Below the pieces are notes generated by a model. The model was given only the letters and a program-made list of their open reading frames with translations. It had not been told where the DNA came from and made no database searches. Shown here piece by piece: positions 33,393-33,594 of a stretch of DNA of 33,594 nucleotides (its first letter is position 1; each line of letters starts with the position of its first letter). The DNA is from a virus (taxonomy: Duplodnaviria; Heunggongvirae; Uroviricota; Caudoviricetes). The stretch is from positions 1 to 33,594 of IMG/VR virus record IMGVR_UViG_2684622582_000002; one strand, 5' to 3'. A program made the translations under genes and the position numbers.

Positions 33393-33433
33393 CAAAAAAT
33401 TAGCGCAAGAAGACAAAAATCACCTTGCGCTAA
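33393..33433 (-). terminator. sib / tI-like retroregulatory terminator next to att
   Basis: 10-bp stem TTAGCGCAAG ... CTTGCGCTAA with minus-strand U-run; about 150-190 bp from the att core on the P-arm side, the geometry of lambda sib/tI. Confidence 0.55.
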
Positions 33434-33439
33434 TGCTCT

Positions 33440-33594
33440 GTCTCAGGTCACTAATGCTATCTAAGTAGTTGATTCATAGTGACTGGATATGTTGTGTTTT
33501 GTAGCATTACGCAGTCTATTTATTAGACTAAAGATATTGTAATGCATTGATGTTAATGGTTTTTAATGTTTCACGTTCAGCTTTTTTATACTAA
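33440..33594 (+). other. attP-type P arm (Int arm-type and IHF sites) plus 15-bp lambda core: right prophage junction (attR side)
   Basis: CAGGTCACTAATGCTATCTAAGTAGTTGATTCATAGTGACTGGATATGTTGTGTTTT... matches remembered lambda attP P-arm; core GCTTTTTTATACTAA at 33580..33594. Confidence 0.8.

Follow-up and report, generated by a model that had tools for sequence, protein, structure and literature searches.

The segment with which the analysed DNA ends, from about 33372 to 33594, is very probably the left half of an attachment (att) site of lambda specificity on a CUS-3-like prophage whose integration module has been exchanged; in the lysogen it would be attR, and the stop of the sequence on the last base of the lambda core (33594) probably reflects a fork in the assembly. 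We propose that, in this prophage lineage, a lambda-type sib-attP-int-xis cassette took the place of the argW/IntS module. Following a look-up of the tailspike protein, the stretch analysed (the window, 33,594 bp) was found to be the entire contig CXYT01000015.1 of the bacterial draft assembly GCA_001268365.1, and both window ends are therefore assembly breaks. As the contig cannot be extended, the nature of B', int, xis and attL is inferred here from relatives that are approximately 95% identical.

The window carries the hallmarks of a CUS-3-like K1 prophage (P22-like, Lederbergvirus), namely P22-type morphogenesis genes (identified by Pfam, with the gene order of relatives), an endosialidase tailspike and a repeat-bearing neuO. 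The genes closest to the att region are:

29243-32188, plus strand: K1-specific endosialidase tailspike gene, the last virion gene ahead of the att region, in the position of siaK1 in CUS-3
32342-33048, plus strand: neuO, a polysialic-acid O-acetyltransferase contingency gene, with a Pfam Hexapep match and AAGACTC repeats

The tailspike (981 aa) unites a P22-type head-binding domain with endosialidase domains on one protein (Pfam Head_binding, End_N_terminal, End_beta_propel, End_beta_barrel, End_tail_spike and Peptidase_S74). Neonatal-meningitis E. coli use neuO as a phase-variable gene for capsule modification and phage resistance, and the gene is found at the same place in CUS-3 and CE10. 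The presence of both P22-type virion genes and neuO, as claimed in an initial annotation made from the sequence, is borne out by the tailspike domains, the hexapeptide acyltransferase and the AAGACTC repeats. Eight of these repeats occupy 32347-32402 (8 by script count, 8.3 copies by TRF). The ORF starting at ATG 32342 ends at 32458, and the hexapeptide body lies in another frame, in the ORF 32713-33048. Eight repeats, not being a multiple of three, put the start codon at 32342 in a different frame from that of the acetyltransferase body and leave neuO in the phase OFF configuration. For comparison, CUS-3 has 19 copies and the CE10 gene is in frame at 777 nt; the count of eight could reflect collapse of the repeat during short-read assembly.

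Downstream of neuO, megablast aligns the window (33390-33594) with lambda (J02459, 27534-27738) without gaps over 205 bp at 85.5% identity (E 6e-53). The same stretch is 95.1% identical to HK97 (AF069529) over 204 bp, where the annotation reads 'sib retroregulation site' for the part homologous to tI/sib, and 'attachment site core; identical to lambda'. Identities to lambda at the level of individual sites were taken from an ungapped base-by-base comparison, with the Int footprints ('int 1', 'int 2') as annotated in J02459:

33394-33436, minus strand: tI terminator/sib retroregulator hairpin, 43/43 identical to lambda 27538-27580
33445-33454, plus strand: P1, an Int arm-type site (AGGTCACTAA); the decamer equals lambda 27589-27598 at the same offset, within the lambda 'int 1' footprint
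33462-33474, minus strand: H1, an IHF site (AATCAACTACTTA), 13/13 to the consensus WATCAANNNNTTR and equal to lambda 27606-27618
33476-33485, minus strand: P2, an Int arm-type site (CAGTCACTAT) with a perfect arm-type consensus, equal to lambda 27620-27629 within the 'int 2' footprint
33491-33536, plus strand: Xis (X1, X1.5, X2)/Fis region, 34/46 identical to lambda 27635-27680
33540-33552, minus strand: H2, an IHF site (CATCAATGCATTA), 12/13 of the IHF consensus at the lambda H2 offset 27684-27696
33578-33586, plus strand: C, an Int core-type site (CAGCTTTTT), equal to lambda 27722-27730 and abutting the overlap region
33580-33594, plus strand: common core O of att-lambda, 15 bp (GCTTTTTTATACTAA), an exact lambda match
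33585-33591: overlap region TTTATAC, 7 bp, inside the core

The initial annotation had recognised the final 15 bases as the lambda core, preceded by a P arm closely resembling lambda attP, and both statements hold at this level of detail. The core GCTTTTTTATACTAA is unique in the window even when up to 2 mismatches are allowed, and the stretch from the core footprint to the core end is identical to lambda in 24 of 25 positions. P1, H1, P2 and C are identical to their lambda counterparts, and P1 and P2 are spaced from the core as in lambda, with no indels. Apart from the shortness of a 15-mer, nothing speaks for a chance match to the core at the contig end: only 0.08 such 15-mers are expected by chance at up to 2 mismatches, and the core is embedded in the 205-bp gapless homology, together with identical arm and IHF sites and a sib that matches at 43/43. 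We consequently reject a chance resemblance outright.

Similarity to lambda is lower in the Xis/Fis and H2 segment. Within the Xis/Fis region, for which we take the names and order of sites from established knowledge of lambda attP, the X1 part is conserved, while the X2/F part has diverged from lambda, as it has in HK97 and 434. The H2 segment matches lambda at 21 of 33 positions. The G at 33552, a W position of the H2 IHF consensus, is private to the window, both the nearest relative and HK97 having an A; either a genuine SNP or an error in the assembly could account for it. Given the X2/F divergence (34/46 for the region) and the private H2 change, excision may be less than fully proficient.

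Immediately distal to the P arm, the minus-strand hairpin consists of a 12-bp stem followed by a U run, with a lower stem that can be extended to 33442 (7 bp, GACAGAG/UUUUGUC). The minus-strand RNA of 33380-33470 folds with a dG of -32.5 kcal/mol (z -5.0), and 0 of 200 shuffles were as good. This stability, combined with the full lambda identity of the element, confirms the sib/tI-like terminator previously noted on this strand. An Rfam search of 32900-33594 yielded nothing meaningful, and a terminator consensus scan missed tI on account of its loop-size rule. The scan instead picked a different hairpin, one of two features located between neuO and sib:

33117-33136, minus strand: GC-rich hairpin with a T run, terminator-like, between neuO and the int remnant, 100% identical to CUS-3
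33288-33371, minus strand: remnant of a CUS-3/IntS (argW-type) integrase, 84 nt, comprising the last 27 codons and stop

The hairpin probably terminated transcription of the intS gene once present here, and may work in both directions so as to serve neuO as well. All 27 residues of the remnant are identical to CUS-3 Int residues 359-385, and the annotations of IAI39, ExPEC XM, CE10, Ecol_AZ159, AR_0017 and 23CRST027 list this remnant as a truncated CDS. No intact IntS-type integrase gene is present beside neuO in the window, where these last 27 codons alone have been kept. Identity to CUS-3 is 100% over 322 bp (33050-33371) and gives way to divergence from 33372 onwards; judged from this comparison of sequences, a mosaic joint to the lambda-type cassette is located at 33371/33372. 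A tRNA-type att site was considered and rejected. No tRNA gene was found in a search of the window, and the argW-derived core CTGCAGGGGACACCAT, which CUS-3 has beside its complete int gene, is without a match in the window at up to 2 mismatches. Identity to CUS-3 up to 33371, the lack of an argW core or tRNA gene, and the sib and P arm that follow together suggest that most of intS and its att site were replaced by a lambda-type cassette. Aligning the region with the att regions of lambda and of K1 prophages, a check proposed with the initial annotation, thus placed the lambda att match on one side of the joint and the end of CUS-3 identity, at 33371, on the other.

The two sides of the joint have different nearest relatives. 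On the left, as far as 33371, no differences separate the window from CUS-3 and ExPEC XM. To the right, it matches a variant different from that of the other neuO prophages: the nearest P arm, at 2 mismatches in 223 bp, is that of a P22-like prophage in E. coli 23CRST027, which carries gtrABC, occupies the same site and has the intS remnant. The window consequently has a recombinant look, being CUS-3-identical on the left and 2/223 different from a gtr-type att-lambda prophage on the right.

The stretch containing the intS remnant (~120 bp, 33252-33375) lies directly distal to sib. It has a counterpart in phage 434 (684-810, local numbering, 88%), and is shared by further lambdoid phages as well as by P22-like prophages of the gtr type and with an HK022 att site. 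Since the sequence past the joint is homologous in 434 and the window, the joint appears to be old and shared. Overall, the remnant stretch is common to 434-like lambdoids and to gtr- and neuO-type P22-like prophages, across att-lambda, HK022-att and argW modules, and later exchanges may make use of the intS remnant as a patch of homology. A broader proposal, which we hold tentatively and regard as almost evenly balanced, is that 33252-33371 acts as a conserved homology 'linker' for repeated swaps of whole cassettes among K1-type and other P22-like phages.

The sequence beyond the core can be read in relatives. A 545-bp query (33050-33594) gave full-length matches of ~95% identity in at least 13 complete E. 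coli genomes among those listed. In IAI39, CE10, Ecol_AZ159, 720R6 and 23CRST027, the core is followed by B' (cttgagcgaaacg / ctttagcgaaacg); the core is followed by CTTGAGCGAAACG or CTTTAGCGAAACG in IAI39, CE10, Ecol_AZ159 and the 720R6 record. In these attR relatives, ybhB-bioA starts ~90 bp past the core. The other prophage end, as seen in ExPEC XM and Ecol_AZ159, reads ybhC-B-O-P'-int-xis, with GAAGCCT, the core and then GTTGGCATT, and the relatives have this core at attL, attR and attP alike. The integrase and excisionase encoded there are nearly those of lambda (Int 351/356 and Xis 71/72 identical, ExPEC XM). By analogy with these two genomes, the earlier prediction of a lambda-type integrase beyond the left edge of the window is strongly supported, as is that of an attB-lambda-like integration site, given that the relatives sit between ybhC and ybhB. 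A search of complete E. coli genomes found no near-identical copy of the whole prophage, the best match covering 78% of 25 kb at 95.6%.

An exact scan of viral, genome and metagenome contig collections with the terminal 57-mer returned zero matches; this is due to the private G at 33552, as dropping that base led to 15 viral contigs. Each of these 15 IMG/VR contigs contains the core-proximal 42-mer, which continues into B' in 10 and into P' in 5, and into nothing else. Several of them encode P22-type tailspike N-termini. In the relatives, the base just past the core is C in B' and G in P'. The initial annotation had placed the prophage-host junction (attR) at 33594. This stands in so far as relatives show B' followed by ybhB-bioA, but the next base in the sequenced strain could also be that of P'.

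The contig might end in P-O-P' only, as part of a free, replicating or tandem phage genome, in which case 33594 would not be a phage-host junction. An internal P-O-P' with the same upstream layout does exist in ExPEC XM, a third of the contigs with the identical 42-mer (5/15) go on into P', and spontaneous induction can be high among P22-like prophages, as in Gally (PMC9928086). However, a lone P-O-P' would create no fork, and one would then expect int to follow on the same contig. The source is moreover a bacterial draft assembly, and P-O-B' is the form seen in 10/15 of the 42-mer contigs and in most related complete genomes. We therefore consider an exclusive P-O-P' end to be quite improbable.

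Placement of the prophage at a secondary or different chromosomal site, despite its lambda core, is more improbable still, and would come as a considerable surprise. It is true that the contig flank ends at the core in this strain, and that the AR_0017 prophage (torS/torT, HK022-type int) and Gally combine the same distal P arm with a different core-proximal part. The core-proximal 25 bp of the window, including C and the core, are nonetheless of the lambda/HK97 type (24-25/25) and without a match in the torS/torT prophage, and on these grounds HK022-type specificity was rejected. In addition, all relatives examined that have this core are located between ybhC and ybhB. The AR_0017 prophage itself (3347-45300, local numbering) is P22-like, lies between torS and torT with an HK022-type integrase, and has a 2946-nt tailspike gene; with it, the integration modules of K1-type P22-like prophages would number three.

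Our favoured explanation remains a lambda-specificity att site in a lysogen, with attR (P-O-B') beside ybhB-bioA at the contig end. The stop at the last core base would then arise because the reads held both P-O-B' and P-O-P', forking the assembly graph; as the two forms part company at the base that follows (C in one, G in the other), the fork would fall exactly there. Both forms could have come from a tandem lysogen, as in ExPEC XM, or from excised or packaged phage DNA. As a side reading, a contig end at the core may thus indicate tandem lysogeny or abundant excised phage DNA in the sequenced culture. In the complete genome of ExPEC XM (locus 5100-48500, local numbering), neuO prophages are arrayed in tandem at att-lambda, and another copy of int-xis comes after the internal P-O-P'.

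The opposite end of the contig is located in the PL operon near N. Genes annotated in this part of the early region are:

201-839: Nmad5-family gene, early region, by the left contig end
1190-1546: N-family antiterminator gene (Pfam)
1907-2659: gene for a DUF1828 protein, between N and the CI-like repressor
2656-3213: gene for a DUF6978 protein (weak match), between N and the CI-like repressor

The left end adjoins the Nmad5-family and N antiterminator genes, and falls at the start codon (ATG at 20-18, minus strand) of a gene that runs off the contig. This region is common to prophages in more than 2,000 genomes, making a repeat-caused assembly break plausible. By analogy with the relatives, attL would be found ~6-7 kb past this end, beside ybhC and accompanied by lambda-type int and xis. 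The Nmad5, DUF1828 and DUF6978 genes (201-3213) sit where lambdoid phages often have exclusion or defence morons.

Because the sites are identical with those of lambda, a lambda-like mechanism can be proposed. Int would bridge the arm sites P1/P2 and the core site C, with IHF bending the DNA at H1 and H2, and strand exchange would occur within TTTATAC. Xis and Fis, binding between P2 and H2, would drive excision. At the distal end, tI would be expected to stop PI transcripts, while N-antiterminated PL transcripts would read through to yield a sib RNase III substrate, in the P-O-P' arrangement only. After infection, when sib is joined to int, RNase III would destroy the int transcripts; in the prophage, sib would lie at the opposite end from int, and no such destruction of int mRNA would take place.

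The window might instead contain a stranded attR of a decayed prophage that lacks functional int/xis and no longer recombines. This is the situation in IAI39 (35-6546, local numbering), where attL and attR of the att-lambda prophage have come to lie ~6.5 kb apart, and int is truncated and accompanied by IS elements. According to the literature, CUS-3-like prophages often decay, and the private H2 mismatch could be read in the same way. Against this, the early-right, lysis and P22-type morphogenesis gene set of the window is apparently complete, with long and intact ORFs, and excision still under way, or copies in tandem, would agree with a contig that stops precisely at the core. Decay is therefore an unlikely description of the window. 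Besides the truncated int, the IAI39 remnant holds pieces of IS elements, a group II intron, part of a tailspike gene and neuO; the end near neuO has been kept while the phage decays.

At the level of the locus, the arrangement is already known. A second and rarer site at which CUS-3-like prophages insert, between pgl and bioA, including that of CE10, has been described (Connolly et al., PMC9659370). The CE10 layout is exactly that of the window. A literature search on P22-like prophages with ybhC found nothing. The initial annotation had regarded the combination of a lambda-type att site with P22-like morphogenesis and neuO as unusual for K1 prophages, described as tRNA-integrating. Whereas CUS-3 does use argW, the combination has been published; P22-like prophages at att-lambda are numerous in databases, and the arrangement is common in E. 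coli genomes. The feature is real and represents ordinary lambdoid mosaicism, and the identity of Int and att with those of lambda is a routine corollary of the known locus. It constitutes a clean textbook case of lambdoid module exchange with a visible scar, involving no new mechanism.

For annotation, the practical value is in knowing that the contig ends at a prophage att site. Neighbouring contigs should begin either with ybhB (core, then CTTGAGCG, B') or with the lambda-type int side (GCTTTTTTATACTAAGTTGGCATT). More broadly, the prophages on which neuO rides have two or more integration specificities, and among K1-type P22-like prophages the number of integration modules is at least three (argW, att-lambda and HK022 att). 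With several specificities in use, surveys restricted to argW will miss copies of neuO.

Among known systems, lambda provides the reference for the att site itself: core, C, P1, H1 and P2 are identical, tI/sib agrees at 43/43, the sites are spaced alike, without indels across 205 bp, and the cognate Int and Xis of the relatives are 99% identical to those of lambda. The Xis/Fis region (34/46) and H2 segment (21/33) differ, and the lambda b-region is absent upstream of sib in the window, where the intS remnant, neuO and the P22-type tailspike are found instead. HK97 attP (AF069529) is among the closest P-arm variants (95.1% over 204 bp), but HK97 is a siphovirus without the intS remnant. CUS-3 (E. 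coli K1 RS218, CP000711) shares with the window its endosialidase tailspike, a neuO gene bearing AAGACTC repeats, and, past neuO, 322 bp of complete identity that include the int 3' end. It differs in that its IntS-type integrase is full-length and its att site lies in the argW tRNA gene, in contrast to the last 27 int codons and lambda att of the window.

Gally (LF82) and the AR_0017 prophage, both P22-like, agree with the window in the intS remnant, in sib and in the distal P arm as far as ~33524, and the AR_0017 tailspike gene is equal in length to the endosialidase gene of the window (2946 nt). They differ in the core-proximal sequence and core, in their HK022-type integrase (357 aa) and in the torS/torT site. 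The CE10, IAI39 and ExPEC XM prophages show the same order of tailspike, neuO, intS remnant, sib, P arm and lambda core, with a ybhB-bioA host flank and lambda-type int-xis at ybhC. In their case, identity is ~95% over the last 545 bp, and the core-proximal P arm (X2/F/H2) is a different variant. The early region of the window (1-7200) is not found in ExPEC XM or Ecol_AZ159, the two relatives compared, at the megablast level. Finally, the 23CRST027 prophage shares the intS remnant, the continuation into B'-ybhB and, with just 2 mismatches in 223 bp, virtually the same att sequence, but carries O-antigen glucosylation genes (gtr) where the window has neuO.
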